Source: an uncultured Candidatus Saccharibacteria bacterium (GTDB lineage Bacteria > Patescibacteriota > Minisyncoccia > Phycocordibacterales > UBA9973). From it: a stretch of DNA of 64,000 nucleotides. The stretch lies in assembly GCA_964646765.1 (NCBI GenBank), contig CAZYIA010000004.1, forward strand, positions 77,887 through 141,886, read 5' to 3'. The position numbers were made by a program, and so were the translations under genes. The notes beneath the pieces were generated by a model. It made no database searches, had not been told where the DNA came from, and saw nothing but the letters and a program-made list of their open reading frames with translations. The number at the start of each line of letters is the position of its first letter. The first letter of the stretch is position 1. Shown here piece after piece: positions 26,548 to 57,603 of this stretch.

Positions 26548-26780
26548 CTTTGCTTCCAGCGCGCGCAGCCCGGCCGCCAGCCCGACAGGGTGGCGGGCAC
26601 CCCGGCGCAGCCGGGGCCGGGCGTCTCCGGCGGGCATGTGCCCGGAGGCCGCAGGCCGGAGCCCGGCGCCGCAGGCGCCGGGGCGAGCGGTAGGCGACCC
26701 CGAGTCCCCGAGGGGGAGGCGGCGAAGCCGCCTAGCCGTATCCCGCGAGCGGTATGCCCGTCCGGGCAGGATGGTGGCAT
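26548..26780 (+). repeat. GC-rich ~230-bp multi-hairpin repeat, copy 1 (immediately upstream of topB)
   Basis: Near-identical to 57352-57603 and to the reverse complement of 30896-31142. Internal palindromes ccggcgccgcaggcgccgg, cgggcatgtgcccg, ggcggcgaagccgcc. Confidence 0.85.
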
Positions 26781-28814
26781 GTGAAGCTGTTTATCGCGGA
26801 AAAACCATCGATGGCGATGGATATCGCGCGGGCGTTGGGGAGCTTCAGGCGCGGGAACGGTTATTTCGAGACGGACAAGGGTTGCGTCACGTTCTGCATT
26901 GGTCATCTGCTCGGACAGGCGCCACCAGAGGCCTATGATGCCGGACTGGCGAAGGACAAACCGTGGACGTTCGACACGCTGCCCATAGTGCCGGCCGTCT
27001 GGCAGCACGAGGTCAACCCGAAGACCAGGGAGCAACTGGCGGTCATAGCCTCTCTGTTGAAACGCGCAACGACAGTCATCCATGCGGGGGATGCGGGCCG
27101 TGAGGGCCAGTTGATTGTCGACGAGGTGCTCCAGCATTGCGGCTTTCGTGGCCGGGTTGAACGGCTGTGGTTGCAGTCGATGACTCCTGACGCGATCCGC
27201 AAAGCGCTTGGCAAAATGAAGGACAACCGGGAGCACGCCGGTCTTTCGGCAGCGGCCACGGCCAGGGCGAGAGCCGATTGGCTGACCGGCATGAACCTCA
27301 CGCGCGCGTTCAGCATTCCCTGGAAGCGCGGCGGCAACGGCGGCGCATTGCACATCGGGCGGGTGAAAACGCCAACGCTGTGTTTCGTGGTCGAGAGGGA
27401 GATGGCAATCCGCAATTTCCAGCCGAAGGACTATTACGTGGTGCGCGCAACCGTCGCGCACCCCAACGGGACATTCGTGGCGACCTGGGAGCCCACGAAG
27501 GAGGCCGAGTTTCTCGACGCCGAGGGGCGCATCGAAAAGCGCATGGTGGCGGAAGCGATGGCCACCTGGTTTGCCGGGATGCCTGCCGAGATTCATGTGT
27601 TCGAGAAAACGGCCAAGAGCGTGCCGCCTCCCCTGCCCTTCTCGCTTGGCGATCTGCAGAAGACTGCGAACCGGCTGCTCGGTCTTTCACCGTCGGAGAC
27701 GCTGGATGTAGCGCAGGCACTCTACGAGAAACACAAGCTGACGTCGTATCCGCGCACCGATTCGAACCATCTTCCGGAGGAAGAGCACAAGCACGCGCAG
27801 ACACTCGTGGAGGCGGCACGCTCGAACTTTGGCAATGTGTGGCCCTTCAAGGGCACGCCGGACTTCTCCTTGAAGTCGCCGGCCTGGAATAGCGCGAAAA
27901 TCAGCGACCATCACGCGATCAGGCCCACGGAAACGCGTGACTACGACCTTGCGAAGCTGTCCGCAGCGGAACTGGCGGTCTACCGGCTCGTGGTCCGGAA
28001 TTTTCTTGCCCAGTTCTATCCGTATTACCGGTATGACGCGACGCGCGTCTCCGTGGACTGCAATGGCGAGAAACTGGTAGCGTCTGGACAGCAGCCGACC
28101 GATGCCGGGTGGCGCGTGCTGTTCGGCATGGACGAGGACGAAGCGCCGGCGGGAGATCCGCCATTGCCGCCCATGGCGGCGGGCGATCTGGTGGCGATCG
28201 CCGACGCGGCGGTGGACACCAGGACCACCACGCCGCCGGCCCGGTTCACCGGTGCGACGCTGATCGACGCGATGGAGCGGGCTCACCTGTTTGTCGGCGA
28301 CGCGGCGCTCAAGGCGACACTCAAGGGGGCGGGGATCGGAACCCCGGCCACGCGCGCCGCCATCGTAGACGAGCTGGTCACACAAGGCTATCTGACGAGT
28401 CAGAAGAAGCACTACCACCCCACCGACCGCGCGATGGCCTGCTACCAGGTCATCCCGCCCACGCTGCGCAAGCCGGATTCCACGGCGTTGATCGAGGACA
28501 CGCTAAGGCAGATTGAAAAAGGGGAAGCCTCGGCCGAGGCGTTCCTTGCGCAGCATGTGGCCGATATCACGGCCCTGGTCGAGACGGCGAAAACCTTGCA
28601 GCCCCCGGATTTCGGCCTTGGGGAGCGCAAGAGCCAGAGGGCAGGGAAAACGGGGCCGCCCTGCCCTGAGTGCGGCAAGCCCATGATTCAGCGTACCAGC
28701 GCGCGCGGGCCGTTCCTCGGCTGCTCCGGGTATCCGACGTGCAAGCACACGCAGAATCTGGAGCCCAGGATTGCGGGGAAAACACCACCACGACCGGGAC
28801 GGCGTGGGGCATAG
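26781..28814 (+). CDS. topB: DNA topoisomerase III
   Basis: KLFIAEKPSMA TOPRIM N-terminus. C-terminal zinc ribbons CPECGKPM...CSGYPTC. Probable GTG start. Confidence 0.9.
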   Translation: MKLFIAEKPSMAMDIARALGSFRRGNGYFETDKGCVTFCIGHLLGQAPPEAYDAGLAKDKPWTFDTLPIVPAVWQHEVNPKTREQLAVIASLLKRATTVIHAGDAGREGQLIVDEVLQHCGFRGRVERLWLQSMTPDAIRKALGKMKDNREHAGLSAAATARARADWLTGMNLTRAFSIPWKRGGNGGALHIGRVKTPTLCFVVEREMAIRNFQPKDYYVVRATVAHPNGTFVATWEPTKEAEFLDAEGRIEKRMVAEAMATWFAGMPAEIHVFEKTAKSVPPPLPFSLGDLQKTANRLLGLSPSETLDVAQALYEKHKLTSYPRTDSNHLPEEEHKHAQTLVEAARSNFGNVWPFKGTPDFSLKSPAWNSAKISDHHAIRPTETRDYDLAKLSAAELAVYRLVVRNFLAQFYPYYRYDATRVSVDCNGEKLVASGQQPTDAGWRVLFGMDEDEAPAGDPPLPPMAAGDLVAIADAAVDTRTTTPPARFTGATLIDAMERAHLFVGDAALKATLKGAGIGTPATRAAIVDELVTQGYLTSQKKHYHPTDRAMACYQVIPPTLRKPDSTALIEDTLRQIEKGEASAEAFLAQHVADITALVETAKTLQPPDFGLGERKSQRAGKTGPPCPECGKPMIQRTSARGPFLGCSGYPTCKHTQNLEPRIAGKTPPRPGRRGA

Positions 28815-28834
28815 CGCAAGTCCCGAACGCCCAG

Positions 28835-29113
28835 TCAGCGGGCGAGTTCCTGATCGATCAGGGCGCGCACCAGCTTTGCAACGGACACGCCACGCTCTAC
28901 AGCGTGGATTTTGAGACGGCGATGAACTTCGACATCAAGCTCGAGGTTGAGGCGCATGGGCTTGAGTCCTCTTCCTCGAGTAATGGTGTCGGCCAGTGCC
29001 GCGCTTTGAATGAATTCCTCGACGCGCTTGCTGTCGCCGGCCGGGCTCTCGCTCGTGACCGGCTGTGGCTTGGGGGGTAGCTTGAAACGGGTCGTCGCAT
29101 TGCTTTGGCTCAT
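28835..29113 (-). CDS. ribbon-helix-helix partition protein (ParG-like)
   Basis: 92 aa. The C-terminal RHH segment LNLELDVEVHRRLKIHAVERGVSVAKLVRALI lies next to parA. Confidence 0.55.
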   Translation of the reverse strand: MSQSNATTRFKLPPKPQPVTSESPAGDSKRVEEFIQSAALADTITRGRGLKPMRLNLELDVEVHRRLKIHAVERGVSVAKLVRALIDQELAR

Positions 29114-29119
29114 TGCCCA

Positions 29120-29176
29120 CCTCGCTTACTCAACGTAATTACTCAACACACTTACTCAACTCAGACGCGCAATGCA
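29120..29176. promoter_or_regulatory. array of TTACTCAA(C) repeats downstream of parG/parA
   Basis: ttactcaacgtaattactcaacacacttactcaactcag. Confidence 0.5.
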
Positions 29177-29177
29177 A

Positions 29178-29816
29178 TTACTCAAGATCGATAAACTCCT
29201 GCGCCAATAGCTGTATCTCCGCCTTCGCCTGGCTGTGATCCGTTTCGACCACGCCACGACCGTCCGCCATCGCCCGCTTGTAGACCTGTCGTGAACGGAT
29301 GATGGTGTTGGCAAGCTTCAATTCCGAGAAGTCCCGAAGCAGTTCCTGTGCTTCCGCCGTCTCCGAAACCAGCGGGTTGGGAGACGCCATCGACAGCACG
29401 GCATAGGCTTGCATGTCGGGGTTGTAGACCTTGGCCGTCTTGATGATCTCGTTGACGCGCGGCATGGTTTCCAGGTCGGGCTGAGAAGCGCCGGTCGGCA
29501 CCAGAATGAGGTCGGCAACGGTTGCGGCAGAACGCATTTCGATGGAATCGCGGCCGCCGGCGTCCACGATGACGACCTGGTGTTTGAGGTCCAGGTCCCG
29601 CAGCGTGTGCGCGACGTTCCCGGTGCGCTGGATGCAATGGATCCGCGGCGTAATGCCGGCCTCGTCGCGCCGGTCGACAAACTGGATGCAGGTGCGCTGC
29701 GTGTCGGTGTCGACAAGCACCAGATCTACGCCGTTCACCGCAAGGTACACCGCGAGGTTCAGGGCAATCGTCGACTTCCCTACCCCGCCCTTCTCCGCCT
29801 CGACAACCAGGATCAT
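29178..29816 (-). CDS. parA: ParA/Soj-family partition ATPase
   Basis: Deviant Walker A KGGVGKST. Confidence 0.9.
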   Translation of the reverse strand: MILVVEAEKGGVGKSTIALNLAVYLAVNGVDLVLVDTDTQRTCIQFVDRRDEAGITPRIHCIQRTGNVAHTLRDLDLKHQVVIVDAGGRDSIEMRSAATVADLILVPTGASQPDLETMPRVNEIIKTAKVYNPDMQAYAVLSMASPNPLVSETAEAQELLRDFSELKLANTIIRSRQVYKRAMADGRGVVETDHSQAKAEIQLLAQEFIDLE

Positions 29817-29829
29817 TTGCCGCTCCTTG

Positions 29830-30240
29830 GTGTAAGCACTCAACTCAACTGAGTAAATGATACGCGCAAATGCGCAGATACACCACTCAAGTGAGTGGCG
29901 GAATTGTGTTGAGTAAACGGGTGCGACATGCCGGTGGCGCGGCCGAGCGTTTCCTGCCGTCAAAGCGTTACCGGAAACGACGGGGGCGAGCCTGGGTGGC
30001 GGGGCCACCACGTTCGTGCCTGCGCCACTGGAGTAAATGAAGCACACAAAAGCGTTGCGTAAATGCGCCATGGCGGAGGGGGGCGGCGTGGGGGAGAGCG
30101 CATGCACCGTGCGCGCGGCACGAAAACATTCCCAAAGGAGGGGCAGTGGGAGCCGCGACGCGGGTGGGGGCCGGCACCGGAGTAATCACGTTACTCAGTT
30201 GAGTTGAGTAAGTGTGTTGAGTAACTGCGTGGGGCGGGCT
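29830..30240. promoter_or_regulatory. centromere/operator-like region upstream of parA: multiple TTGAGTAA / ACTCAA repeats, GTTACCGGAAACG, GAGTAAATGAAGCAC and GCACGAAARCATTCCC direct repeats
   Basis: Repeats read directly. Partially duplicated at 31550-31650. Confidence 0.5.
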
Positions 30241-30634
30241 AGACGCATCCAGGCGCGTCTGCCGTATGGGTCGCACGAAAGCATTCCCGAAAAAGGGAAC
30301 GGTCGCCCAGCGGCTTCGGCATGGAACGGCGGACCAGCACAGGATGCGTGCTGAGAATAAATTCGTAAACACACTAGTGCCGGATGCCTTGAACCCGGAG
30401 CGTCGAAATTGGCCCTGAAGGTCCCGCGATCAGGGCCTGTCCGTAACTGCCATGTCGCACTCGTTCCGCGCCAGGGGCAAGTTCAATGAGAGGACGGCGC
30501 GTCATGTCATATCACATCATGCGCCCCCAAAGCAGATCAGCCCATCCCATCAAAACTTATAGCGTATCGGGTGATATGGTGCTGCTGCGCGTCCGGCCGC
30601 GAGCCGGTACCGGAAAACGGGAAAGGAGGGGCTC

Positions 30635-30889
30635 ATGGACAACAAGACGGTCGCAGCGAAAGAGGCCAGCGTGGATAGCGAGACTTTCAACTGGGGACAT
30701 CCGCGTGTTCCCTGGACGTTCAATTTGCGGCTTTCCGAGCCGCATCAGCGGAAACTCGAATTCATCCTCGCGCATCGGCGCGAGAAAAGCATGCACCAGA
30801 TGCTTGCGTCCTTGATCGAGGCGTTCATCGACACGGAAGTGGACAAGCTGCTTCAAGCGGGGGAGCGCCCGCACTCGGCGCGGAGCTGA
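30635..30889 (+). CDS. ribbon-helix-helix DNA-binding protein
   Basis: Beta-strand FNLRLSEPHQRKLEFI followed by helices. GGAGGGG RBS. Confidence 0.55.
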   Translation: MDNKTVAAKEASVDSETFNWGHPRVPWTFNLRLSEPHQRKLEFILAHRREKSMHQMLASLIEAFIDTEVDKLLQAGERPHSARS

Positions 30890-30895
30890 GGCCCT

Positions 30896-31142
30896 GCGCC
30901 GGACGGGCATACCGCTCGCGGGATACGGCTAGGCGGCTTCGCCGCCTCCCCCTCGGGGACTCGGGGTCGCCTACCGCTCGCCCCGGCGCCTGCGGCGCCG
31001 GGCTCCGGCCTGCGGCCTCCGGGCACATGCCCGCCGGAGACGCCCGGCCCCGGCTGCGCCGGGGTGCCCGCCACCCTGTCGGGCTGGCGGCCGGGCTGCG
31101 CACGTTGGCGGCGAAGGCCCAAAGGGGTCTTCAAAAACAGGG
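30896..31142 (-). repeat. GC-rich multi-hairpin repeat, copy 2 (inverted relative to copies 1 and 3)
   Basis: Reverse complement matches copy 3 including its 5' extension cctgtttttgaagacccctttgggcc. Confidence 0.85.
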
Positions 31143-31922
31143 GCACAGCGGCGCAGCCGCGGCACTCTCGGGCCGTCAGGACTCAGGGATATCCCCCATT
31201 CCCAGGACGCTCTTTGGGGCAGGGTTGTCCGGCTGCCAGGCTGTCCGGAGGCCGGGATTGTCGCCATGGAACAGGACAATCCACGGAATCCAGAGCGGGG
31301 CGATGGGTAACCGATCACAGTCCGCGTGTCGTCTTTACGGACAGATGTTCCTTGAACACGAACAGTAAACCTGCGGCGGGTACACGAGCGGCCCGCAGGC
31401 GATCTGAGCGACCGGCGCTTTCCCTGCGCCGGATCGGCGAGCTGGTATCGCGGGAGCCCTCAAACTGCGGACACGCTGCGTGCAGGCGGGCCAGGCGGGA
31501 AGGGCAGGGGGTGTCCTAATCCGCAGGAGCTTCCAGGGATGCTCGCGCTAACATTGAGTAAATGAAGCACTCAAATGCGCCACATGGATGAGTGCATGGT
31601 AATCCGTGCGGCCAGTACGACATCGTTACCGGAAACGGGAAGGCCGGGGATAGGGCAGGGCGATCCAAGAAGCCGGTGGCTCAGAAAGCAGGGCTCATCG
31701 GGGGCGGTATGGGGAAAGCTGGATATGGGTGGGGCGGCCAGGGGAGCAGGGCAAGCCCGAATCCGGGAAAAACATGCCGCTCTGTGCCTGCCTCGGTGAG
31801 TATGGGGCTGCCGCCGAAGAGAAGAACGGGAAGACCTTTGCGGAAGGGACTTCCCGGAGAGTCCGGGCAAAACTCGGGAGTGGGGCGCCTGGGAGGGTAT
31901 GGGGCAGGCCCGGGAAGCCAGT

Positions 31923-32711
31923 TCAAGGGCCGACGTAGTTGCCGTCCTCGTCGACATAGCTGTCCGGCAACGCTTCGCCAGGGGTGTTGTCCTCGGGGGG
32001 CAGCTCGAACAGGTCGATGTAGTCGGCGGGGTCGGGGAGGGCGGCACGGGCGGCTTCTTCGGCCGCCTGCCGCGCTTTGGCGGCTTTTTGCTGCCGCCAA
32101 AGCTCCATCCGCGCGCGATGGCGCTCGTTGATCCGGTACTGCTCGACCTGAAAGTCGGCGGTGTATTCCGCGTGCGTTTGCCGGGCGGTCGTCATGGAGA
32201 TCTGGATCGCCTGCGAGAAGCGGCCGACGAGCTTGCGCAGGCGCTTGCGGCGGTCGAGGAGGTCCTGCAGGCGGATAACCAGATACCGGACATCCGCCTC
32301 CGTGCCCCGGAACGGCCCATAACTCTTGATGTGCCGTCTTGCCTGACCCGTCGCCACGATGTCGTAGTACCGGATCTCGCGGGTCTTGCGGGTGGCGGCC
32401 GTTCGTTTCCAGGCGATGAACGTCGGCTCCGGCAGTCCACCGCCGTAGTGTGCGATGAAACGCACTTCCAGTTTGCCGGGAGCGTACGGCTGGATGCTGC
32501 GCAACAGCAGCGCTTGCTTGTGAATCAGGGCGTCCAGGCTTTCGATCATGCGGATGGCTTCCTGGATCGGCCCGAGGAAACGGGCGGCAATGGCGTCCGC
32601 CGGCACGGCCTGGTTCGCAGGTGCGGAGGGGGAGGGGGGTGTTGTTTTCATGGCGGCACGAAATGGAGCACGATTACCTGATGGCATGATTGAAGCCATG
32701 CGGCACGACAT
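31923..32711 (-). CDS. conserved mobile-element protein of unknown function
   Basis: 262-aa ORF. Start uncertain (32711 or 32651). Confidence 0.5.
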   Translation of the reverse strand: MSCRMASIMPSGNRAPFRAAMKTTPPSPSAPANQAVPADAIAARFLGPIQEAIRMIESLDALIHKQALLLRSIQPYAPGKLEVRFIAHYGGGLPEPTFIAWKRTAATRKTREIRYYDIVATGQARRHIKSYGPFRGTEADVRYLVIRLQDLLDRRKRLRKLVGRFSQAIQISMTTARQTHAEYTADFQVEQYRINERHRARMELWRQQKAAKARQAAEEAARAALPDPADYIDLFELPPEDNTPGEALPDSYVDEDGNYVGP

Positions 32712-33168
32712 GAGACGGGGGTGAATGATATGAAATCAGTTGATTAGAGTGATATGACATGACATCGTGTTCTCTACTAGTTGTTTCCTGTTTTGCCGTT
32801 GCGCCTCGCCTGCCCTTTAAGCAACTCGCCCGCATTCGGGCAATTTCGACCAAGCCGGCGGCTTGGTGCGTTGCCGGCATAAAGAAGGGCGCCCGTAAAA
32901 CGGCCGCCCTTCGCAGTGTTCTCGGCCAGATGTGACAAGACGCTTGGATCGGTCCCGTCACCATGGCCCCCATGTCAGCCCGCTTCGATGTGTTTCGTGC
33001 CGGCAGGTAATCGAATCGTGCCGGCAGGGTATCGATAGCGTGCCAGCAGGTTTGCGTGTCTGCCCAGCAGCCGAGCGTTCCCGTCGATTCTAGCGGGGCG
33101 CCGCTATAACTTTTGCGCGCCGCCCGGCACACCGGTTTAATCCGGTCATTGGATTCGTGGAGATTGCA

Positions 33169-34185: not shown

Positions 34186-34189
34186 TCGC

Positions 34190-34489: not shown

Positions 34490-34504
34490 CCGGAGCCGTA
34501 GACA

Positions 34505-44959: not shown

Positions 44960-45583
44960 TCATGATGCGGCACTGAGATCACAAATGGCATCCCAGTCGA
45001 ACCAGGTGCACGAGATGACCTCGCAACCCGGATAGGCCGCTTCAGCAAGCTCTGCGGCATGATCGCTGTCGAGCGCATCGCAGTCATAGGCCGTGCGGAA
45101 CTTGTCACCACGATGCTCGTAGAGCATCACCCGGAAGGGCTTGAGCCCGGCCTGCTCGTGACATCGTTGCCGTTGCCTTTCGACGGCTGCACGAAACGGG
45201 ACGACATATTGCTCGCCGATACGCTGAAACGCGGAACCGAGATCGCGCGCTTCCAGTGACGCGCCAAGCGAGGACGCGGTTTCCCATGGGCTTTGGCCAA
45301 ATGGGCCGGGCCATGAGAGATGCTTTACTTCGAGCCAGAATACCTTCAGTTCGTCTTCAGTCGCGCCGGCAGACACCAATGCATCCATCAATACATCCAC
45401 TGGCTTATGCAGGCCGCCAAGCGCGGCATCGGTGAACTTCCGCCACTTGACGAGCACGACTTCCCGGCAGGGGCAGTTGAGTTGTGTTTCCATGTTGCTC
45501 TCCTCATCGTCTTCAAGGGCCTTCACCACGAAGGTTTGCCTTGTATGGAAAGCAAGCGGTTGCCTGATGCACGAAAAAACCAC
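44960..45583 (-). CDS. hypothetical protein, member of AYPGC-motif paralog family
   Basis: Shares ELAEAAYPGCEVISCT with 46238..47230. Confidence 0.55.
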   Translation of the reverse strand: MVFSCIRQPLAFHTRQTFVVKALEDDEESNMETQLNCPCREVVLVKWRKFTDAALGGLHKPVDVLMDALVSAGATEDELKVFWLEVKHLSWPGPFGQSPWETASSLGASLEARDLGSAFQRIGEQYVVPFRAAVERQRQRCHEQAGLKPFRVMLYEHRGDKFRTAYDCDALDSDHAAELAEAAYPGCEVISCTWFDWDAICDLSAAS

Positions 45584-45613
45584 CGTGAATCGTTTGATTC
45601 AACGGTGGTTGGG
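45570..45613 (-). terminator. rho-independent terminator (AAAAAACCACCGTGAATCGTTTGATTCAACGGTGGTTGGGGG, minus-strand sense)
   Basis: Long stem. Reads stem plus T6 on the minus strand. Confidence 0.6.
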
Positions 45614-45615
45614 GG

Positions 45616-46187: not shown

Positions 46188-46237
46188 CAAAAAAACCACC
46201 GTGAATCATTCGATTCAGCGGTGGTTGGGGGGGCGAC
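46188..46237 (-). terminator. rho-independent terminator (same family as 45570-45613)
   Basis: AAAAAAACCACCGTGAATCATTCGATTCAGCGGTGGTTGGGGGGG. Confidence 0.6.
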
Positions 46238-47309: not shown

Positions 47310-48512
47310 TTAAGTGGTTTCCGCGCCGTTCGAGCCGGGAAGCCTGTGTTTTTCCGCCATTTCGGAATGACGCTCTTCCTCGTCCGTGTGGACGTAACGG
47401 TTGGTCGTCGAAAGGTTTGCGTGGCGCATTACATCCCGCACCTGGGCGATATTCATGCCTTCCCGCACCAGGTTGGTTCCGAGCGAATGTCGGAGCCAGT
47501 GCGCGGATACGCTGCGCAGGAGCATGGCTTCGTCGCCGCGATCGGCACGTTCCAGTCTTCCGGCGACATTCTCGAACACCTCGTCCTTGAGGATGCGGTG
47601 CAACGTCTGCCGGGTGAGTCGCGCGCGACTCGGGCCAAGCGAGAAGATCAATGGTGTCGTTTCGTTGGATCGGGGCAGGGCGGACAGGCCGAATGCTTCT
47701 CGATAGATAGCCAGCTCCCGCATCAATTCCGGCGTCACCGGGATCTCGCCTTCGCTGGAGCCCTTGCCGGTAATCACAAGCCACCATTGGCGTGTGCCCG
47801 CGGGGCCTGGGCGCTGAATGAACCCGCCCATAGTGTTCGATACGGCCTCCGAGATTCGCAGCCCGGACAGATAGAGCAGAACGATCGCCCAGCGCCTCCT
47901 GGCCATCTTGCGAAACTCGGCCTCCCCCTCGCCAGCCGACGTCGCCAGCGTATCCAGCACAAGCGCAACCTGATCGGGGAGCAGATACCGGTGCAACCGC
48001 ACCTTGCCTGCGGTCTGTTTTTTCCTGCGCATCAGGGACAAGGGATTGCCATGCAGGTAGTTCGCGCCGACCAGCCAGTTGAAGAGCCCGTTGATGATGT
48101 TCATGGCCTGCTTCTGGCTTGCTTCCGACAGGGGCCCATAGAAAGGCCGCCAGTCGGGATGCGTAATGGGAAGCTTGCGGTTTGGTGAAATCCACTTGCG
48201 GGCCGGCTCGGGATTCCCCAGAAAACGCGGGTATTCAAGAACATCCGCGTGAGTCAGGGCAGAAAGTGTTTTCTTGCGCTCATGTGCAGCCCAGAGTACG
48301 AAACGGATTGCCTCCTTGCGATAGGACACGAAGGTTTCAGGCGAATCGAGATACCCCTTGAGCCACTCATTGACGGCGGAGAGATCGTCGGTCGCGTCGA
48401 GCTGGCAAACCTTGTCGCGGGCCCGGTTGTATCCGTTTTGCAGAACGACCGATGCCGGAATGCTGAAAATGGCCGGCAATTCTCCCGCAAGGATCAACTG
48501 GGTCGACATCAA
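47310..48512 (-). CDS. tyrosine site-specific recombinase / integrase
   Basis: C-terminal catalytic region HWLRHSLGTNLVREG...RHANLSTTNRYVH (R, H-x-x-R, Y). Confidence 0.85.
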   Translation of the reverse strand: MMSTQLILAGELPAIFSIPASVVLQNGYNRARDKVCQLDATDDLSAVNEWLKGYLDSPETFVSYRKEAIRFVLWAAHERKKTLSALTHADVLEYPRFLGNPEPARKWISPNRKLPITHPDWRPFYGPLSEASQKQAMNIINGLFNWLVGANYLHGNPLSLMRRKKQTAGKVRLHRYLLPDQVALVLDTLATSAGEGEAEFRKMARRRWAIVLLYLSGLRISEAVSNTMGGFIQRPGPAGTRQWWLVITGKGSSEGEIPVTPELMRELAIYREAFGLSALPRSNETTPLIFSLGPSRARLTRQTLHRILKDEVFENVAGRLERADRGDEAMLLRSVSAHWLRHSLGTNLVREGMNIAQVRDVMRHANLSTTNRYVHTDEEERHSEMAEKHRLPGSNGAETT

Positions 48513-50212: not shown

Positions 50213-50215
50213 GCG

Positions 50216-50515: not shown

Positions 50516-50572
50516 TTCAAACCTCCCTGTTGACGCCTACAGCGGAGAGCCTGCTGCCGGAGCGCGGCACCA

Positions 50573-51109
50573 TCACAACCCCAGCTCCTTCAGCGCGCTG
50601 TCAAACGCGGCCTCGACTTCCGGGATCTCTATCTTGTAAGTCCCGAAGAGAGACAGCCCGCGTTCCATCATATCCGTGAAGACCTTCTGAATCTGACCGT
50701 GAGGTGTCAGGTAGGTCACGCCGGCGCCGTCGGCATTGCTCACCGGCTCGCCATCGCAGAGCAGCGAGAAGAGGATCGAAAACATGCCGCCGCCCCGCAT
50801 CAAGAACCACAGCCAGTGCGGCCACGCCTGGTTGAGCGTGCGGAAGAAGGCGGATACTTCCGGGATCTGCGCGAGCTCGCGCGGATCGTCGTTGTAACCG
50901 TCGACCATGAAGGCGAGCGACTCGCGGTAACGGATGACGTTTTCCCGTGAGTCGGTCAGAACATGCAAGCGCTCGATGGCGCTTGCGATATGGCCCGACT
51001 CGATTTCCCGCCGGGTGATCATGAGCACGACCAGGGCGTCCGCGCTGTTGTCGGCCAGCCCATCGGCGTCGAGCATCCGTACCGGAATTTCGCGATCCTT
51101 GTGCAACAT
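50573..51109 (-). CDS. hypothetical protein
   Basis: Start MLHKDREI. Confidence 0.45.
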   Translation of the reverse strand: MLHKDREIPVRMLDADGLADNSADALVVLMITRREIESGHIASAIERLHVLTDSRENVIRYRESLAFMVDGYNDDPRELAQIPEVSAFFRTLNQAWPHWLWFLMRGGGMFSILFSLLCDGEPVSNADGAGVTYLTPHGQIQKVFTDMMERGLSLFGTYKIEIPEVEAAFDSALKELGL

Positions 51110-51254
51110 CTTGTTTTGCCTCCTTTGGCAGCCAAAGCGGAGACCGGTGCTGACCATGATTTTAGCCTGCCGCTCCGATAGCGTAAGGTGACAGTATATG
51201 CATTATGTGAGAAAAAACAAGGGGAGGATAGCAAAAACGCCTAATTACATATTA

Positions 51255-51295
51255 TTTCTTGACCTTGTGGAGATGCTCGATTACCATGCAGATGC
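51255..51295 (+). promoter_or_regulatory. candidate sigma70-like promoter for ssb (TTGACC-17-TACCAT) in an AT-rich leader
   Basis: Read by eye. Weak. Confidence 0.3.
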
Positions 51296-51327
51296 CTGTA
51301 AAAGGTCATGGGAAGGAGGCATCTTGA

Positions 51328-51762
51328 ATGGAAGAAGCGCTGTCATTGGCCGGGAACCTCGGAACCGAGCCAGAGATGAGATACACCGCCGACGGCAAGT
51401 CGGTGGTGACGTTCAGTCTTGCCGCCCATGAGCAGACGGCCCGCTCGGGCGTCTGCGAAATCCGGACGACCTGGTACCGGTGCGTCGTCGCCGGCGAGCC
51501 GGAGCTGGTCGATATGGCCGCCACGTTGCACAAAGGCGCGCGCGTGGAGATCGAGGGGGTGGTGCGAACCCGGTCGTGGCGACGCTACGGGCGGGAGGAG
51601 TCCATCGCGGAACTGCACGTTACTCGCCTTGTGCCCCGTTTTCGGCCGGGCGCCCACGAACGCAACGCCGGCGCCGTGGCGCCAACACCCCGCTCCCCTC
51701 TGGAGGCCGCTAAGGCTGCCGGCCTCTTCGAGGCTGATCGGCAGGACGGCACGGACAACTGA
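51328..51762 (+). CDS. ssb: single-stranded DNA-binding protein
   Basis: OB-fold N-terminus LAGNLGTEPEMRYTADGKSVVTFSLAA...WYRCVV. GGAGG RBS. Confidence 0.75.
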   Translation: MEEALSLAGNLGTEPEMRYTADGKSVVTFSLAAHEQTARSGVCEIRTTWYRCVVAGEPELVDMAATLHKGARVEIEGVVRTRSWRRYGREESIAELHVTRLVPRFRPGAHERNAGAVAPTPRSPLEAAKAAGLFEADRQDGTDN

Positions 51763-51773
51763 AAGGACACGAT

Positions 51774-52892
51774 ATGGCCGAACGGGAGCGGGACAGTGTG
51801 GCGCTGCTGCAGGAAGTGGCTGATCTGTGCGAACGGATCAGCGACACCAGGGAATTGACGCGAGAAGTGGCAAACCTGCTGTTTCAGCGTGGCGAACGCC
51901 CCAATGCAGGGCGGGTGCACCAGTTGACCCGCCGGGGTTCGATGGTGACCGTCCATGACGAGATGAACAAATGGTGGGACGATTTGCGGGCGAAGCTTGA
52001 GGTTCGGCTCGTGAACCCGAACCTGCCTGACGCCCTGCTTGAAAAGCAGAGCGGTCTGCTTGGCGAACTCTGGGATCTCGCCATCACCCGCGCGCGAGAG
52101 GAAATGCAGGCATATCGGGATGCGGCCGATGCGAAGGTGAGCGAAGCAGAGGTCGCCCGCGCGGCGGCGGAGGCGAGCGCCACAGAACACCTACGGGCCG
52201 CACAGACCGCCAACGCCAGCCGCGAGGAAACCGAGCGCCACCTAGCGGCCGAGCGTGCGGCCCGTGCGGCAGCCGAGGCCGACGTCGAGGCCTGGCGGAC
52301 GCAGGCGGAAGCGTCCGCCCGGGAAATGGAAAACAATCGCATCACCCTGGAAGCGCAACTCGATGCCCAGCGTGCTGCGGCCGAGCGCGCGGAGCAGCAG
52401 TTCAACGAGCAGCGCCGCCACACGCTGCTGGAGATCGACACCTTGCGCACCAGCAATGCGGAGCTGCGGGATCACCTCAAAAAAGCCGAGCACCAGATTG
52501 CCCGCCTGCAGGAATCCGAGCGCACCCTGAAGGAGTCCGAACGGGATCTGCATGACCGCCTCACCCGGCAAAGCGAAACGGTCGCACGTCTCACCGGCGA
52601 AGTTTCCGCGCTCACCGCGCGCCTCGATGCCATTGTGAGCGAACGGGACAATCTGGTGCTGGACAGACAGCGGGATCGCGAGGCGCACCAGGAAGCAATC
52701 GCCAGCCGGGACAGCACGGTGACATCACTGCAGGAATCGTTGCAGCTCATGAAGGCCAATGCGGAACTGTTGACGGCCGAAGCAGCCCGGCTGCGCCAGG
52801 CAAACAGCGACCTCAACCTTGCGTTGAAGCGGAAGGACGCGACGCCGGCGACCCCCGAACCGGACCCGAAGGATGAACATGATGAATGTTGA
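51774..52892 (+). CDS. kfrA: KfrA-like coiled-coil DNA-binding protein
   Basis: N-terminal DNA-binding region, then >250 aa of Ala/Glu/Arg-rich coiled coil. Confidence 0.55.
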   Translation: MAERERDSVALLQEVADLCERISDTRELTREVANLLFQRGERPNAGRVHQLTRRGSMVTVHDEMNKWWDDLRAKLEVRLVNPNLPDALLEKQSGLLGELWDLAITRAREEMQAYRDAADAKVSEAEVARAAAEASATEHLRAAQTANASREETERHLAAERAARAAAEADVEAWRTQAEASAREMENNRITLEAQLDAQRAAAERAEQQFNEQRRHTLLEIDTLRTSNAELRDHLKKAEHQIARLQESERTLKESERDLHDRLTRQSETVARLTGEVSALTARLDAIVSERDNLVLDRQRDREAHQEAIASRDSTVTSLQESLQLMKANAELLTAEAARLRQANSDLNLALKRKDATPATPEPDPKDEHDEC

Positions 52893-54804
52893 ACGCACAC
52901 TTGCCGAGCCGATGAAGGCCCTTGCCAGGATCGGTCTCAAACGAGCGGAGGATGCCCTACTGACGGTTCCGCGCCGGTTCGTCGACTATACCCTGCAGCC
53001 GGCCCCGGACCGACTTGCTGACCACATCGGCGAGAAGGTCTCCATCGAGCTCAAGATCATGGCGCCGCCCAAAGCGGACGGCAGCCAGCCGCGGTTCATC
53101 GTCGAAGCAATGGACCGCACACGCCGCGTGCACCGGATGACCGTGTTCGGCGCACTGAAGTGGTCGCCATGGAAGGCGGTCAAGGCCGGTGACGTCGTGA
53201 AGATCCAGGCCAAAGTGACCGACTTCAAGGGGACGCCGTATCTCAACAATCCGGAGTTGATCCGGGACGAGGACTGGGGGCGGGTCATTCCGGTCTACCG
53301 GGCCGTTCCCGGCCGCCTTTCCGGCGACAAACTGGCCGCCGGCATACGCGAGGCCCTTCGCATGCCGCACGCCATCGACGACGCGGTGCTCGCAATCCGG
53401 CAGGCGTTCGGCGGGCAAACCGAAGCCGAAATCCGTCTCATGACGGGCCTCAAGTGGCCGCTGGCCGGACTGGTTCGTGTGCTCCACCAACCCGCGGATA
53501 TGCAACAGGCTGAACGCGCCGTTCTTGCGGCACGACGGCTTGCGGTTCATGCGATCCGGCACCGCGCGACCAAGGCGGTGAGCCGTGCCTTCGAGAAGGA
53601 CTCGGTAATCCGGATCGATGAAGAAACGATCGATGCCATGATCATCGATCTGCCCTTTCGCCCGACCACAGGCGAACTCTCCCAGGAAGAGGCCATCCAG
53701 AAAATCGTCGAGCTGCTTGCGTTGCCCTACCCCATGGCGGCGCTCCTTTCGGCTGACGTGGGTGTGGGCAAGACCCTGGTGTATGCGGTGCCCGCGGTCG
53801 CCAGCCAGCGCCTGGGGCGCAAGGTGGCGGTGATGATTCCGAACAGCATCCTGGTGGAGCAGGTCGCTGCAGAGTTTCGTGAATGCTTTCCGGGAGTCCC
53901 GGTGACGACGGTTGGCGATGCGGCATCTGCGCGTAACCTCGATCTGACGGCCAACCCGATCCTTGTCGGCACGACCGGCCTCATCGGCGTGGCGCGGGCG
54001 CGGGCTTGGGTGCCTGACCTTCTCGTTATCGACGAATCCCAAAAAACCAGCCGGGAACAGCGGGAAGCGCTGTGCGGCCCGCACACGAACGTGCTGGAGG
54101 CGACCGCCACCGCCCTGCCCCGTACGCTTGCGCTCGTCATGCACGGTGGCAAGCAGTTGATCCAGGTGGCCCGCCATCACGCTCGCAAGACCATCCATAC
54201 CCGCGTTGTGACGCCGGCGGAACGGAAGATCGTCATGAACAAGATCCGGGAAATGATCGGTGCTGGCGCTCAGGTAGCCCTCATTTATCCGCGCGTGACC
54301 GGCGAAGAGGCAGGCGATCGTCTGAGCGTGGAGGAAGCCGGCAAGCTTTGGGAACAGCGGTTTCCCGGACAGGTGGCGGTGCTGCATGGGAAAATGAAGG
54401 ATGTGGAGAAGGCGAGCGTGATGGCCGACATGAAGGCTGGACGCAAGGCCTTGCTCTGTGCATCGAGCATCATCGAGATCGGCACGACCATCCGGAACCT
54501 CAAGTTGCTGATGGTGGTGAGTGCCGACCGTTACGGCGTCTCCACTTTGCACCAGATGCGCGGGCGCCTGGTTCGTCACGGAGGAGAGGGTTTCTGCTTC
54601 CTGTATCTCACCGGAGAGGTCGACGAAGAAACGATGGCGCGCCTGAAGCTCATGGAGAACGCGACAGACGGTTTCGAGCTGGCCAACATGGATCTCCAGT
54701 TGCGCGGCTTCGGAGATGTCGGCGAAGACTCCGGTGAGCAATCCGGTGCGAGTCTTACCTTGTTCAGGGATCTGGTGCTGATGCCGGGAGACTTTGAATC
54801 TTGA
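52873..54804 (+). CDS. RecG-like SF2 DNA helicase with N-terminal wedge/OB region
   Basis: Walker A DVGVGKT, DESQ box, LHGKM motif VI region. Confidence 0.75.
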   Translation: MNMMNVERTLAEPMKALARIGLKRAEDALLTVPRRFVDYTLQPAPDRLADHIGEKVSIELKIMAPPKADGSQPRFIVEAMDRTRRVHRMTVFGALKWSPWKAVKAGDVVKIQAKVTDFKGTPYLNNPELIRDEDWGRVIPVYRAVPGRLSGDKLAAGIREALRMPHAIDDAVLAIRQAFGGQTEAEIRLMTGLKWPLAGLVRVLHQPADMQQAERAVLAARRLAVHAIRHRATKAVSRAFEKDSVIRIDEETIDAMIIDLPFRPTTGELSQEEAIQKIVELLALPYPMAALLSADVGVGKTLVYAVPAVASQRLGRKVAVMIPNSILVEQVAAEFRECFPGVPVTTVGDAASARNLDLTANPILVGTTGLIGVARARAWVPDLLVIDESQKTSREQREALCGPHTNVLEATATALPRTLALVMHGGKQLIQVARHHARKTIHTRVVTPAERKIVMNKIREMIGAGAQVALIYPRVTGEEAGDRLSVEEAGKLWEQRFPGQVAVLHGKMKDVEKASVMADMKAGRKALLCASSIIEIGTTIRNLKLLMVVSADRYGVSTLHQMRGRLVRHGGEGFCFLYLTGEVDEETMARLKLMENATDGFELANMDLQLRGFGDVGEDSGEQSGASLTLFRDLVLMPGDFES

Positions 54805-54901
54805 GCCTTGATCGACTGGCCATCGCAAGGGCTTTGTTCTTGCGGCGTTATGCATGTAACGGACGATGATCTGCCAGGCTGGCAGCCGCAGGCCCCACAC
54901 A

Positions 54902-55132
54902 TTAAGCGTCGAGTTTTCCCGCCAACTCGGAAATTGCGCCGCCGACCTCAAGCCAGTGCCTCGCGGTCGGTTCAATTATTGCGCGCATGAGCGTCAGCAC
55001 AACGGCCTGCGAATTGATATCGCACCGCCGGTAAAGGTCCAGGAATGCGTCTTCGCTGGCGTCTGGAACGCTGAAAAGTCCTGTGACACTTTGGCGGGGT
55101 TTTGCCGCTGACGGCCTGATGGCGTCCGTCAT
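54902..55132 (-). CDS. small hypothetical protein
   Basis: 76 aa. Confidence 0.35.
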   Translation of the reverse strand: MTDAIRPSAAKPRQSVTGLFSVPDASEDAFLDLYRRCDINSQAVVLTLMRAIIEPTARHWLEVGGAISELAGKLDA

Positions 55133-55162
55133 CGCGAGCCGAGGGGCGTGCCCAAGAGCGAC

Positions 55163-55852
55163 TCAGCTCGCATGCTGCACTGACTGATCTGCTTCCTGCG
55201 GTTGCGGTGTACCAATCCGCATGGCGTGATAGACCTTCTTGCCGAGCATGTAACCGATACTGGGAGTGCCTTGAATCTCTTCCAGGCTGGCCTGGGCAAG
55301 GCCATGCACACTTCCGAAGCGTTTGGCCAGAATGCCGGCAGCCGTGGTTGATACACCGGGAAGCCCTTCGAGAATGTACCTGGTCAGAACCGATGAATTT
55401 GCCAGGGGCGTTGCGTGCCGCAGCTGGATTGGATACGGCATTCCCGCTTGACAAAGTTGGGCCATGCTGGCGATGAGCTTGGCGCTTTGCTCGATGCTCG
55501 CGGACAAAACCGTTTGCACGCCTGATTTCACGGCCAGCCACGCAAGCGCCTCGACGACGGCTTCCGACTCGATGAAGACGCGAGTTGTCATTGCGCAGCC
55601 CTCGATGACCACGAAAACCTGGTCATTCTGCTCACGCATCAGTTCGATTTGTGGATACAGGCTGCGATTGACAGTCCCGGCGACGAATTCCGCGGCAGTC
55701 AACCTGTTGAGTATGGTGCGTTTGGCAATGATGTGGGTCCCGACATCGAGGTCTGCCGCGATAACCCTGGCGTAGGCGAATTCCTCGATGATCTTGCCGG
55801 TGCCTTCCTCGTACTCCTTCCGGTCGCAAGTGATGTCGATGGTCGTAATCAC
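55163..55852 (-). CDS. nuclease-like protein with C-terminal tandem helix-hairpin-helix (HhH2); ERCC4/XPF-like candidate
   Basis: HhH2 LEGLPGVSTTAAGILAKRFGSVHGLAQASLEEIQGTPSIG. N-terminal D...KR region loosely resembles the ERCC4 GD...ERK motif. Confidence 0.5.
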   Translation of the reverse strand: MITTIDITCDRKEYEEGTGKIIEEFAYARVIAADLDVGTHIIAKRTILNRLTAAEFVAGTVNRSLYPQIELMREQNDQVFVVIEGCAMTTRVFIESEAVVEALAWLAVKSGVQTVLSASIEQSAKLIASMAQLCQAGMPYPIQLRHATPLANSSVLTRYILEGLPGVSTTAAGILAKRFGSVHGLAQASLEEIQGTPSIGYMLGKKVYHAMRIGTPQPQEADQSVQHAS

Positions 55853-56769
55853 GACGCCTCCTCAGCACACATTTCCAGTAACTGCTCCAGTCCCGATTCC
55901 ACCGCGTTGCGCCCGGCAGCCTTGGCACGATATAGCGCACAGTCGGCGGCCTCGATGGATGCTTCCACAGGCCTCCCCCACTCCAGTGCGGCGACACCAA
56001 AAGAAGCCGTGATACGAAACGTCTCGCCATCTGGAGGCACGATGTCCAGCCCCGCAAGGCCCGCGCGCAAGCGCTCGACGATCGCGACCGCATCCGGCAA
56101 TGGCGTGTCGGGCAACAAAATCAGAAACTCCTCGCCACCGTGCCGGTACAACGAGTCGTACTTGCGAAGGCGCGACATCGTGAATTTCGCCGACTGGCGC
56201 AACGCCGCGTCTCCGGCGGCGTGGCCGCGCTGGTCATTGATTTGCTTGAAGTGATCGAAGTCCATCAGCGCGATCGAACAGCCTGACCCGACACGCGCAG
56301 CACGCTCCATCTCGCTGGCGAGTTTGTCCAGCATTCCGCGACGCCCGAATGCGCCGGTAAGAGGGTCGGTGGCCAGAAACTCGGCGATGATTTCAAGCTG
56401 AAGGCTGCGTAGCTGGGTGTTCAGATGGACGCTGAGCGACATGCAATGGTCGTAGTCCTCTTCGGTTATCCGTCCAAACTGGCTTTGGTCCAGACAAAGG
56501 CGCGTCGCGGTTTCCTGTATTTCCCGTTGAATTTGCACGATTGCAGTCACTTCCGGATGCTCGCGAAGCTCATCGATGCCCATGGGGTTCTGCCATTTTC
56601 CGAACAGCGGATGAAGATGCGCGTCTGGTCTGTCGTGGGCGGCCAGCGTGCCGTCCCCGAAAAGCAACGCATGATTGAAACGCTTCAACCATAACTGGTG
56701 AGCCGCAAGAACGATCTCCATCTCCTCAAGGAGGGGGAAGACCAGCTCACGATCAAGGGGTGGTCTCAT
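55849..56769 (-). CDS. GGDEF diguanylate cyclase with N-terminal sensor domain
   Basis: RHGGEEF motif, I-site RxxD. Confidence 0.85.
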   Translation of the reverse strand: MRPPLDRELVFPLLEEMEIVLAAHQLWLKRFNHALLFGDGTLAAHDRPDAHLHPLFGKWQNPMGIDELREHPEVTAIVQIQREIQETATRLCLDQSQFGRITEEDYDHCMSLSVHLNTQLRSLQLEIIAEFLATDPLTGAFGRRGMLDKLASEMERAARVGSGCSIALMDFDHFKQINDQRGHAAGDAALRQSAKFTMSRLRKYDSLYRHGGEEFLILLPDTPLPDAVAIVERLRAGLAGLDIVPPDGETFRITASFGVAALEWGRPVEASIEAADCALYRAKAAGRNAVESGLEQLLEMCAEEAS

Positions 56770-56774
56770 TTCGA

Positions 56775-57197
56775 TCAGGTCGTCGAATGCGCGTCGGCGT
56801 GCGGCAGATCTTCAAGCGCCCGCGCTTTTTTCAGCACGTCGTCAAGGTCATAGCCGATCGCCTTCATGCCGAGCTTGTAGCGAGCCGTGGCGGCGGCACG
56901 GATGAGCGATTCGGCAATCATCCGATGGCCGGTTTCCGGGTCTGGCGGATCCATGAAGTCACCAAACAGATCCTCGCGGACAAAAATCTGGCTGATCGTG
57001 CCAAGGCGCGCGAGGTATCCCTGCCGGTTCACGATTTTCCTGTCGGACAGAGCCCGGTTCACCGCTTGCATTCCGTGGGTCAGTGGTGTGTTTGCGAGTT
57101 TCTTGCTGCCCTCGTCAACCTTGAAAATATCGTTGACGGTCATGGGCCCGGAGGTATGCGCAAGCGCCCCGCTTGCCTCCGCGAACACTCCGAGCAT
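56775..57197 (-). CDS. hypothetical protein
   Basis: Part of the long 56775..57830 ORF that runs into the GC-rich repeat. Start chosen at MLGVFAE before the repeat. Confidence 0.4.
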   Translation of the reverse strand: MLGVFAEASGALAHTSGPMTVNDIFKVDEGSKKLANTPLTHGMQAVNRALSDRKIVNRQGYLARLGTISQIFVREDLFGDFMDPPDPETGHRMIAESLIRAAATARYKLGMKAIGYDLDDVLKKARALEDLPHADAHSTT

Positions 57198-57351
57198 CTC
57201 GATGAAGACGTCGGGTTCGACGGGATCGGAAAGTCCGATCAGCCATTTCTTTGCGTCTCTCTTTTTCACAATCGCCTCCAGATGGTGCGGCGAAAACCAT
57301 AACCGGAGTCCCGCTATAACTTCAACAGGAACCGCGCTGCCGCCTTCCTGT

Positions 57352-57603
57352 TTTTGAAGACCCCTTTGGGCCTTTGCCTCCAACGCGCGCAGCCCGGCCG
57401 CCAGCCCGACAGGGTGGCGGGCACCCCGGTGCAGCCGGGGCCGGGCGCCTCCGGCGGGCATGTGCCCGGAGGCCGCAGGCCGGAGCCTGGCGCCGCAGGC
57501 GCCGGGGCGAGCGGTAGGCGACCCCGAGTCCCCGAGGGGGAGGCGGCGAAGCCGCCTAGCCGTATCCCGCGAGCGGTATGCCCGTCCGGGCAGGATGGTG
57601 GCT
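57352..57603 (+). repeat. GC-rich multi-hairpin repeat, copy 3
   Basis: Near-identical to copy 1. Shares a 5' extension with copy 2. Confidence 0.85.

Follow-up and report, generated by a model that had tools for sequence, protein, structure and literature searches.

The 64-kb stretch of contig CAZYIA010000004.1 analyzed here (the window) is a plasmid backbone, with Pfam matches to a PRTRC cassette, TopB, ParA, an actin-like ALP protein, an S49 peptidase, RepA_C and a tyrosine recombinase, as well as KfrA, a DEAD-box helicase, ERCC4, a GGDEF protein and an insertion sequence (IS). Set among these genes are three near-identical copies of a G+C-rich element: copy 1 (or 'a') directly upstream of the topoisomerase gene topB, copy 2 (or 'b') in inverted orientation beyond the par genes and a small 84-aa gene, and copy 3 at a distant locus. 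Sequence comparison identifies the element as a folded non-coding constituent of an uncultivated PRTRC/TopB plasmid family, strongly conserved and fixed in position, and we consider it quite probable that selection has maintained it in this folded, non-coding form.

A repeat finder and alignment place the copies, which share 95–96% identity and have a G+C content of 0.80–0.81, at 26537–26778 (+), 30893–31154 (-) and 57334–57603 (+). Copies 1 and 3 form direct repeats (26537–26778 and 57361–57602, 96% identity), and copy 2 is inverted relative to both, matching copy 3 over 256 nt at 95% (30899–31154 versus 57334–57589) and copy 1 over 229 nt at 96% (30899–31154 versus 26537–26765); repeats of such length and similarity cannot have originated by chance. 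A covariance model recovered each copy as a 231-nt match (Table 1), and sensitive blastn, nhmmer and the covariance model found no fourth copy in the 64-kb window. An earlier note, made from the letters of this DNA, had reported three copies at these places, and the limits found here are slightly wider. Alignment also upheld two features described in that note, a 3′ tail common to copies 1 and 3 (GGGCAGGATGGTGGC) and an extra 5′ segment common to copies 2 and 3 (CCTGTTTTTGAAGACCCCTTTGGGCC). In copy 1 this segment has diverged but still corresponds to the hairpin and CCCCTGTTTTTGAAGAC of the other copies. The tail of copy 1 is present on copy 3 and on the copies of the related contigs L004, L006, L009 and L010. 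Its AGGA, 10 nt before the GTG of topB, agrees with the ribosome-binding-site-like sequence that had been proposed, but the tail itself looks like topB flank that was copied along with the element.

The setting of each copy is different, and orientation relative to the neighboring genes is mixed. Copy 1 has two strong terminators on one side and topB on the other. Copy 2 has its 3′ end 4–10 nt from where the convergent 84-aa gene stops, and its other side faces 770 bp of G-rich DNA devoid of genes. Copy 3, whose 5′ part is 62 nt from the start of a divergent 165-aa gene (56775–57272, - strand), lies between that start and the terminator of a convergent gene; it carries three private substitutions, two of which convert C-G pairs to T.G.

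Table 1 Features of the element and its neighborhood, in window coordinates
Feature	Position	Strand	Remarks
Two terminator hairpins	26426..26482	+	second followed by T6; conserved in L015 and in the element-less L016
Copy 1, diverged 5′ part	26491..26546	+	hairpin CCCGTCGTGC-GAAG-GGCACGACGGG, then T-rich tract
Copy 1 ('a')	26547..26777	+	covariance model 237.7 bits; directly upstream of topB
Copy 1, domain 1	26568-26622	+	three-way junction
Copy 1, domain 2	26627-26765	+	closed by long-range helix 26627-26637 / 26754-26765
Copy 1, invariant core	about 26680-26756	+	
Copy 1, tail	26766..26780	+	GCAGGATGGTGGCAT, with AGGA Shine-Dalgarno-like sequence for topB
topB	26781..28814	+	type IA topoisomerase III, 677 aa, GTG start; preceded by copy 'a' in three plasmid lineages
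84-aa gene	30635..30889	+	stop abuts copy 'b'
Copy 2 ('b'), inverted	30886..31117	-	covariance model 224.6 bits
Copy 2, domain 1	31042-31096	-	
Copy 2, domain 2	30899-31037	-	
Copy 2, 5′ part	31118..31161	-	hairpin GCGGCTGCGCCGC, then CCCCTGTTTTTGAAGACCCC...; terminator-like on - strand
Tyrosine recombinase	47310-48512		Phage_integrase family (Pfam)
Copy 3, 5′ part	57334..57370	+	CAGGAA...TTCCTG, TTTTTGAAGACCCCTTTGGGCC
Copy 3	57371..57601	+	covariance model 233.9 bits
Copy 3, domain 1	57392-57446	+	
Copy 3, domain 2	57451-57589	+	

Conservation, position and recombination

Relatives were collected by an exact 20-mer scan of metagenome contigs and by a TopB homologue search with contig look-ups. 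Seven of the eleven contigs matched in the 20-mer scan hold true copies (L004–L007 and L009–L011). Another contig, L013, belongs to the same plasmid lineage as the window (97.5% identity over 20 kb) and has copies 1 and 2, and the element is also borne by two more distant lineages, L014/L015 (TopB 67% identical at the amino acid level) and L017/L018 (63%). Blastn of the unit against PLSDB and a phage collection gave no match, two exact-pattern scans of viral contigs were empty, and a 21-mer scan covering 185,579 species, each represented by one genome, returned only a 22-nt chance match in a Streptomyces. The element is therefore not a host-genome repeat family, and the BLASTN count of copies suggested in the earlier note comes to three in the window, with relatives in metagenome contigs only.

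In L014/L015 and L017 the element keeps 88–92% nucleotide identity to the window copies, compared with only 67–70% for TopB, ParB and ALP DNA, so that it is 20–25 percentage points better conserved than the coding DNA that flanks it. A stretch of ~85 nt, GGGCG(A/C)GCGGTAGGCGACCCCGAGTCCCCGAGGGGGAGGCGGCG(A/C)AGCCGCCTAGCCGTATCCCGC(G/A)AGCGGTATG, is invariant in 13 of 13 copies (alignment A2) and forms part of domain 2 of the fold described below. Position is conserved as well: in three lineages copy 'a' lies upstream of topB (of VVA0879-topB in L014/L015) and the inverted copy 'b' lies 4–30 nt past the stop codon of a small gene, whose protein is 41–49% identical across lineages and which corresponds to the 84-aa gene of the window in both L014/L015 and L017. 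This inverted pair brackets 4.1–4.9 kb of DNA containing topB, the par genes and the small gene; the ParA proteins encoded inside the bracket share 25% identity and are not orthologous. Contig L018 consists of exactly the segment between the two copies of the pair. Each plasmid has at least two or three copies, including the conserved inverted pair, and the genes nearby (those of TopB, a helicase, ERCC4 and KfrA, with SSB in addition in L017) have functions in DNA handling. Among other TopB relatives, nucleotide and covariance-model searches found no element in L016 (66%), L019 (62%) or L020/L021 (52%), the first of which retains a similar purine-rich stretch before topB.

Comparison of nearly identical contigs revealed how the copies behave as repeats. 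Over 11.9 kb of flanks L006 is 98.3% identical to the window, yet the element that it carries at the copy-3 locus shares 97% identity with copy 1 and only about 92% with copy 3; paralogous copies exchange sequence. L004 and L009 have a common upstream flank and different downstream flanks, and L014 and L015 are identical downstream and different upstream, with the switch point inside the element. Both L014 and L015 are represented in the 260-kb contig Ga0369713_1000005, at ~24.6 kb and ~223.4 kb, as two copies of at least 12.7 kb each that run through the element, VVA0879, topB and parBA and onward; the arrangement reflects a genuine duplication or recombination at a third copy, or else a chimeric assembly. 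About 12 nt of the flank next to topB accompany the secondary copies, and because this tail is found on copy 3, L006, L009 and L010, they look like segmental copies of 'a' and not like products of transposition. The element is recombinogenic, or at least assembly-breaking, and it is not transposon-like. It had been described as mobile or recombinogenic, and only the latter description holds, through the exchange in L006 and the partner switches in L004/L009, L014/L015 and L018. In practical terms, it breaks metagenome assemblies, marks recombination junctions and is occasionally miscalled as a protein.

These properties could be those of a selfish or neutral interspersed repeat, spread by transposition or recombination and acting only as a substrate for rearrangement, like repetitive extragenic palindromes and bacterial interspersed mosaic elements (REP/BIME) or miniature inverted-repeat transposable elements (MITEs), which were named in the earlier note. 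REP/BIME and MITEs are likewise intergenic, palindrome-rich, multi-copy, present in both orientations and substrates of recombination; the paralogue exchange and the contigs that break or switch partner at the element fit this picture, as do the lack of copy 'a' at an otherwise conserved site in L016 and the several palindrome-breaking substitutions in the copy of L010/L011. Such repeats spread through host chromosomes and decay neutrally, MITEs having terminal inverted repeats and target-site duplications, whereas the element is confined to one plasmid family, absent from the species genomes, PLSDB and the phage and viral collections. Its palindromes all differ, while REP/BIME are short palindromes (about 35–40 bp) of one or two types. 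No terminal inverted repeats were found, the ends CCCCTGTTTTTGAAGAC... and ...GCCCGTCCGGGCAGG not being complementary, and a look for target-site duplications or direct repeats at the copy boundaries, as had been proposed, was negative in ~10 contexts; the sole empty site, in L016, has no duplication either. Neither an autonomous parent IS nor an associated transposase was found: the only IS nearby, a 1-kb interruption of the L006 copy (11914–12937, with a 330-aa transposase on the - strand, TGT...ACA ends and a CTAG-type target duplication), is a secondary insertion of the IS481 family and was rejected as a parent. Two copies hold the same positions in plasmids whose proteins are 41–67% identical, an 85-nt core is invariant, and covariation and compensating indels maintain long-range helices. 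Fixed positions and conservation above that of the genes are the reverse of what is expected of a decaying selfish repeat, and we regard this explanation as improbable.

Fold and coding potential

Thirteen copies, including those of the distant lineages, were aligned (A2) and folded with RNAalifold, which yielded long-range helices, and the structure was then refined. The + strand, defined as the sense strand of topB at copy 'a', can form a three-way junction (domain 1) and a multi-branched structure of about 140 nt (domain 2), the latter closed by a helix in which CCGGCGGGCAT pairs with ATGCCCGTCCGG. Of the 864 cells of the refined structure 97% are paired, and covariation is seen at three pairs, two of them through C-G, U.G and U-A and one from G-C to C-G. 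Cells with double changes numbered 7, compared with 2.0 ± 1.0 in shuffles (0 of 500 reached 7), and were missing from all six slid controls. The three sequences that carry a G-to-C change within CGGGCATGTGCCCG also carry the matching C-to-G change 124 columns away, two hairpins of L014/L015 have compensating losses of one base per arm, and the first hairpin of L014b has been rebuilt from different bases. In copies other than L010, substitutions fall nearly all in loops and linkers; the L010 copy breaks two local palindromes, which had the appearance of non-compensation before the distant lineages joined the alignment. Both domains recur in single-sequence minimum-energy folds of W1, L017a and L010. 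The invariant core is beyond the reach of the covariation test, and energy z-scores are uninformative at 80% G+C, being only about -2.1 to -2.2 relative to shuffles on either strand and with either parameter set.

The two-domain fold obtained from these 13 copies agrees with the earlier note in that the unit is structured and departs from it in the kind of structure. A model made of a string of local hairpins gave a poorer fit, with one hairpin broken in four sequences, than long-range helices with covariation. The palindromes that had been listed are present, but one of them, CGGGCA-TG-TGCCCG, is probably not a functional pairing, since in the long-range fold the partner of its 5′ half is the 3′ end of the element. 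Rfam had no match anywhere in the window at gathering thresholds, searches at E up to 10 with copies 1, 3 and L017a gave only chance-level partial matches, and ARAGORN found no tRNA or tmRNA; the two-domain element is a new family with no Rfam counterpart. Several known kinds of element were tried and rejected. The differences between copies are not adenine-specific, as they would be in the template or variable repeat of a diversity-generating retroelement, and for a retron, group II intron domain V, an IS110 bridge RNA or an IscB/TnpB omega RNA there was neither a model match nor an adjacent reverse transcriptase, recombinase or nuclease gene.

Four of the six reading frames are open across the unit, and 11 of 19 variable sites fall in one phase, a weak excess, as might be seen if the element were part of a gene for an Arg/Pro/Gly-rich low-complexity protein. 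The best frame, compared with 5.8 billion proteins, matched a single one, the hypothetical 122-aa P0001 from the same plasmid lineage, and no frame of the unit had a Pfam match. Homologues differ by non-triplet indels (-1, -1 and -2 in L014/L015; +1/-1 in L009), a putative TTG start is out of frame in L004, and 85 nt are without any synonymous change where neighboring proteins are only 41–67% identical. No one frame is consistent across the homologues, and the open reading frames called over the copies are spurious, as had been suspected. A coding function is effectively refuted, and we assign it next to no probability.

Because its perfect palindromes are all Watson-Crick, the element could alternatively be read as double-stranded DNA, that is, as a site for the tyrosine recombinase, for a ParB/KorB-like protein, or for TopB on extruded cruciforms, with the inverted pair acting as recombination or boundary sites around topB-par. 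Such a reading would suit an inverted pair placed around its module in three lineages, the exchange of par genes inside this module between lineages, and the presence of a Phage_integrase-family gene in the window. The palindromes, however, are all mutually different and offer no repeated binding motif, and the covarying pairs (alignment columns 26–75 and 90–214) are long-range and hence cannot form in a cruciform and would be meaningless for duplex recognition. In addition, one local palindrome has lost its pairing with no compensating change, although covariation is seen with its long-range partner, an inverted version of the module was seen in none of the relatives, and the recombinase gene is 16–21 kb from copies 'a' and 'b'. 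We consider a duplex site very improbable, and the tyrosine-recombinase site suggested in the earlier note has no support.

Single-stranded DNA or RNA

The hairpin loops of the element are of a kind described from DNA. C(GNA)G triloops, in which N varies (C, A or G) and the G and A are kept, cap every one of the three long local hairpins (of 7, 9 and 7 bp) as well as a short one. A fifth hairpin has a C(GANA)G loop whose third position can be C, G or T, contrary to the GNRA rule of RNA. All of these GNA/GNNA loops are on the + strand; the background in the window is 3–4% of triloop hairpins per strand. GCGNAGC and GCGNNAGC are mini-hairpin DNA motifs that are exceptionally stable, with melting temperatures of 70–76 °C, and far less stable as RNA, that are poorly bound by SSB, and that are found at the single-stranded DNA (ssDNA) priming sites of G4, St-1 and alpha3, in RSF1010 ssiA and in N4 hairpin promoters (PMC13037366). 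The authors who described STAXI argued in the opposite direction, from UUCG loops to an RNA (PMC2864571). Single-sided changes that lead to G.U (or G.T) slightly favor the + strand, with four pairs against two doubtful ones for the - strand; the loops are the stronger evidence.

By analogy with these systems, we tentatively propose that the active form of the element is ssDNA with a role in priming or protein loading, which we consider possible, though somewhat less likely than not. Opening of the duplex in replication or conjugative transfer would allow the + strand of each copy to fold, the C(GNA)G and C(GNNA)G mini-hairpin caps would keep this fold free of SSB, and the invariant core and fixed shape would be read by a primase, a primosome or another DNA-processing protein. 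The folded element would thereby become a starting point for complementary-strand synthesis or for the loading of a protein. The inverted pair would supply one active copy per strand, in the manner of ssiA and ssiB in the oriV of RSF1010, and copy 'a' would merely sit in the topB leader and supply no promoter.

Single-strand initiation (ssi) signals and complementary-strand origins, among them those of G4/St-1/alpha3, RSF1010 ssiA/ssiB, primosome assembly sites and the single-strand origins (sso) of rolling-circle plasmids, are likewise strand-specific, non-coding and hairpin-rich, and they work in single-stranded form only. They are associated with plasmid replication and establishment. RSF1010 has two such signals on opposite strands, comparable to the inverted pair, and the GNA/GNNA-capped hairpins of ssi signals (PMC13037366) are matched in the element by four C(GNA)G hairpins and one C(GNNA)G hairpin on one strand. 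The likeness has limits: known ssi signals are 40–150 nt long with one to three simple hairpins, whereas the element has ~200–230 nt, two domains and long-range helices; its inverted copies are 4–5 kb apart around genes and not inside an origin; and no sequence similarity was found.

Two other groups of plasmid signals invite comparison. The Frpo/ssi-type ssDNA promoters in the leading regions of F and ColIb-P9 occur as several dispersed ~300-nt copies, highly conserved between plasmids, in front of establishment genes (ssb, for example). They function as folded ssDNA, each as a single long, imperfect hairpin in which the -35 (TTGACA), -10 (TATAAT) and UP elements of a duplex promoter are imitated (PMC11541004). 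All Frpo copies face the same way on the transferred strand, which is the template for the downstream gene, whereas one of the three window copies is inverted. Only copy 1 among the three precedes a gene. The element also differs in its 80% G+C, and a Frpo-type promoter is excluded because there is no -35/-10, the fold is multi-branched and not a single hairpin, and the stabilized strand is the topB sense strand. STAXI (RF01728), PAGEV, GEBRO and ARRPOF are conserved structured motifs on mobile elements for which a function as ssDNA and not as RNA has been proposed (PMC2864571, PMC5737381). STAXI resembles the element in its location near ssb, topoisomerase, anti-restriction and integrase genes, and the plasmid motifs PAGEV, GEBRO and ARRPOF resemble it in length (223–349 nt), but STAXI is a tandem pseudoknot with UUCG loops in place of GNA/GNNA loops and has a different architecture. 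The models of STAXI, PAGEV, GEBRO and ARRPOF had no match even at E up to 10, and those of HEARO, IS605-orfB and group II intron domains had none at the gathering threshold.

The element could instead act as a structured RNA. If its + orientation is transcribed, copy 'a' would be the 5′ leader of the topB (or VVA0879-topB) mRNA, which it would regulate or stabilize, and the other copies would be orphan small RNAs or 5′ domains of antisense transcripts into convergent genes. A number of observations weigh against an ssDNA signal, and several of them favor RNA. In three lineages copy 'a' is co-oriented with topB or its partner gene and directly 5′ of it (4–55 nt upstream of the first gene of the topB unit), like an RNA leader, with strong terminators upstream and a fold that stops 3–4 nt before the AGGA. 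Several copies are found beside divergent gene starts or just past terminators, like independent transcription units, the 5′ ends of copy 3 and of the L009/L004, L017a and L014 copies being 60–190 nt from divergent gene starts. The minimum-energy fold computed with DNA parameters misses the covarying helices, which single-sequence folds with RNA parameters recover. Known ssDNA signals are mostly simple hairpins, and a two-domain fold whose closing helix spans 130 nt is more like RNA, for which multi-helix complexity is the norm; GNA triloops, too, exist in RNA. At four pairs, including two that covary, a one-sided change produces U.G when the + strand is read, and the refined structure, although obtained from the + strand, has 44 G.U cells on that strand versus 3 on the - strand. 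Immediately 5′ of the first helix there is a partly conserved TTGAAG...CC(N)CCAAC. Copy 'a' appears dispensable in L016, which retains the upstream terminator, has 21 nt from its T-run to the GTG and starts topB 29 nt after the terminator. Finally, the covariation comes from few independent lineages and from three pairs only, and the count of covarying pairs was matched by 61 of 500 shuffles.

Other observations weigh against RNA. Neither a scan nor inspection by eye found a sigma-70 promoter in or beside any copy, and no copy has an intrinsic terminator; sigma-54 and sigma-70 promoters in the 5′ part were rejected as a poor fit by both approaches. The TTGAAG motif is missing from exactly those copies of the window lineage that precede topB (W1 and L013a), and to take TTGAAG-N15-17-CC(N)CCAAC as a sigma-32- or sigmaE-like promoter is speculation, given its absence from the copies that would need one. 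The closing helix ends before the Shine-Dalgarno sequence and does not sequester it, and no terminator follows the fold. The loops are GNA/GNNA and not GNRA or UNCG, a pyrimidine is allowed at the third tetraloop position, L016 has its topB after the same terminator with no element between, and no Rfam family matches. The structured RNA or 5′ untranslated region module suggested in the earlier note survives as one of two readings, with copy 'b', copy 3 and the L010 copy each lacking a downstream sense gene; we think it possible, and only slightly less probable than the ssDNA reading.

Conserved structured non-coding elements of plasmids are, to our knowledge, few, and most of them have no known function (STAXI, PAGEV and GEBRO). 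For the element the comparative evidence is unusually clean, combining ~90% conservation versus 67–70% for genes, two fixed positions, an inverted arrangement and covariation. As an ssDNA signal, it would extend functional DNA folds well beyond hairpins and would point to the priming or organization of strand synthesis and to the replication and establishment biology of large uncultivated PRTRC/TopB plasmids. That it stands for a new class of large multi-domain ssDNA signals, with a ~200-nt fold, long-range helices and mini-hairpin caps recognized per strand in replication or host entry, is an idea that we regard as rather doubtful. As RNA, it would be a new class of plasmid non-coding RNA or leader tied to the plasmid topoisomerase.

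Neighboring features

The PRTRC cassette is on the - strand and extends up to 25797, with Pfam matches to ParB_N, PRTRC_E, Prok_Ub, alpha-hel2, Prok-E2_D, JAB and ThiF. General Pfam scans found no relaxase among the window proteins, and PADLOC had no match to six function-unassigned neighboring proteins. Among sequenced plasmids the closest TopB is TraE of IncP-1, at 40% identity; megablast of 14 kb of the window against PLSDB had no match, and exact-sequence look-ups of the window TopB (with V or M start) and ParB returned no record.

The terminators in front of copy 1 insulate the element and topB from the small genes upstream. The double hairpin and T-run at 26426–26483 (+) is also a sub-threshold match to the Rfam family 'Betaproteobacteria toxic small RNA' (26.4 bits, gathering score 50, E = 0.003), which hints at a betaproteobacterial host. 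Two families of near-identical terminator-like hairpins recur at gene ends, AAAAAACCACCG...CGGTGGTTGGGGG at 45574–45615, 46190–46231 and 57619–57655, and CCCCCCAACCCCGC...GCGGGGCTTTTTT at 5867–5906 and 7395–7434.

Inside the bracket formed by copies 'a' and 'b', the ribbon-helix-helix (RHH)-ParA operon is flanked by 51-nt inverted iteron blocks (29133–29183 and 30180–30230) made of TTACTCAAC-type repeats and 80% complementary, which are probably two centromere or operator sites of a type Ib partition system. The 770-bp gene-free stretch beside copy 2 (31155–31925) is G-rich with positive GC skew and contains GGTATGGGG four times; its equivalent in L014/L015 is gene-free too (about 1.3–1.5 kb) and not alignable. 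The stretch could hold iterons, a long non-coding transcript or an origin-related region.

Four contigs from soil metagenomes (L002, L003, L008 and L012), the remainder of the eleven 20-mer matches, were rejected as copies because they have only 22 nt in common with the element. They share a ~90-nt conserved leader, CACTGAGAGCAACGNCCGTATCCCGCGAGCGGTATGAGCGCTCGAAAAAGCTTGC...GAGGAGGA, upstream of a gene that starts MKLLGLDHI, and the 22-nt hairpin common to leader and element is probably a chance resemblance. The leader is possibly a cis-regulatory motif in its own right.

A solitary sequence resembling a CRISPR repeat of type I-C style (GTTTCGCCCGGTTACGGGCGTGGATTGAAAC, 57664–57694, - strand) separates the end of a function-unassigned gene of 214–224 aa from the terminator of that gene, about 60 nt from copy 3. 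It occurs once in the window and matches Rfam CRISPR-DR9 at 29.1 bits (gathering score 45, E = 1.6e-4). It is kept in the 95.7%-identical relative L007 (4597–4627) and gone from L006, where a short stretch has been replaced. Solitary repeat units have been proposed to serve as RNA anti-CRISPRs, and this sequence could be one of them. On the other side of copy 3, the 13-mer GCTATAACTTCAA (57296–57308, +), which reads TTGAAGTTATAGC on the other strand and is -35-like, recurs in L017 (9663–9675). Both occurrences are in flanks upstream of the element, at copy 3 and at L017 copy 'a', and both are beside a divergent gene start; the 13-mer may be a divergent promoter carried along with the element.

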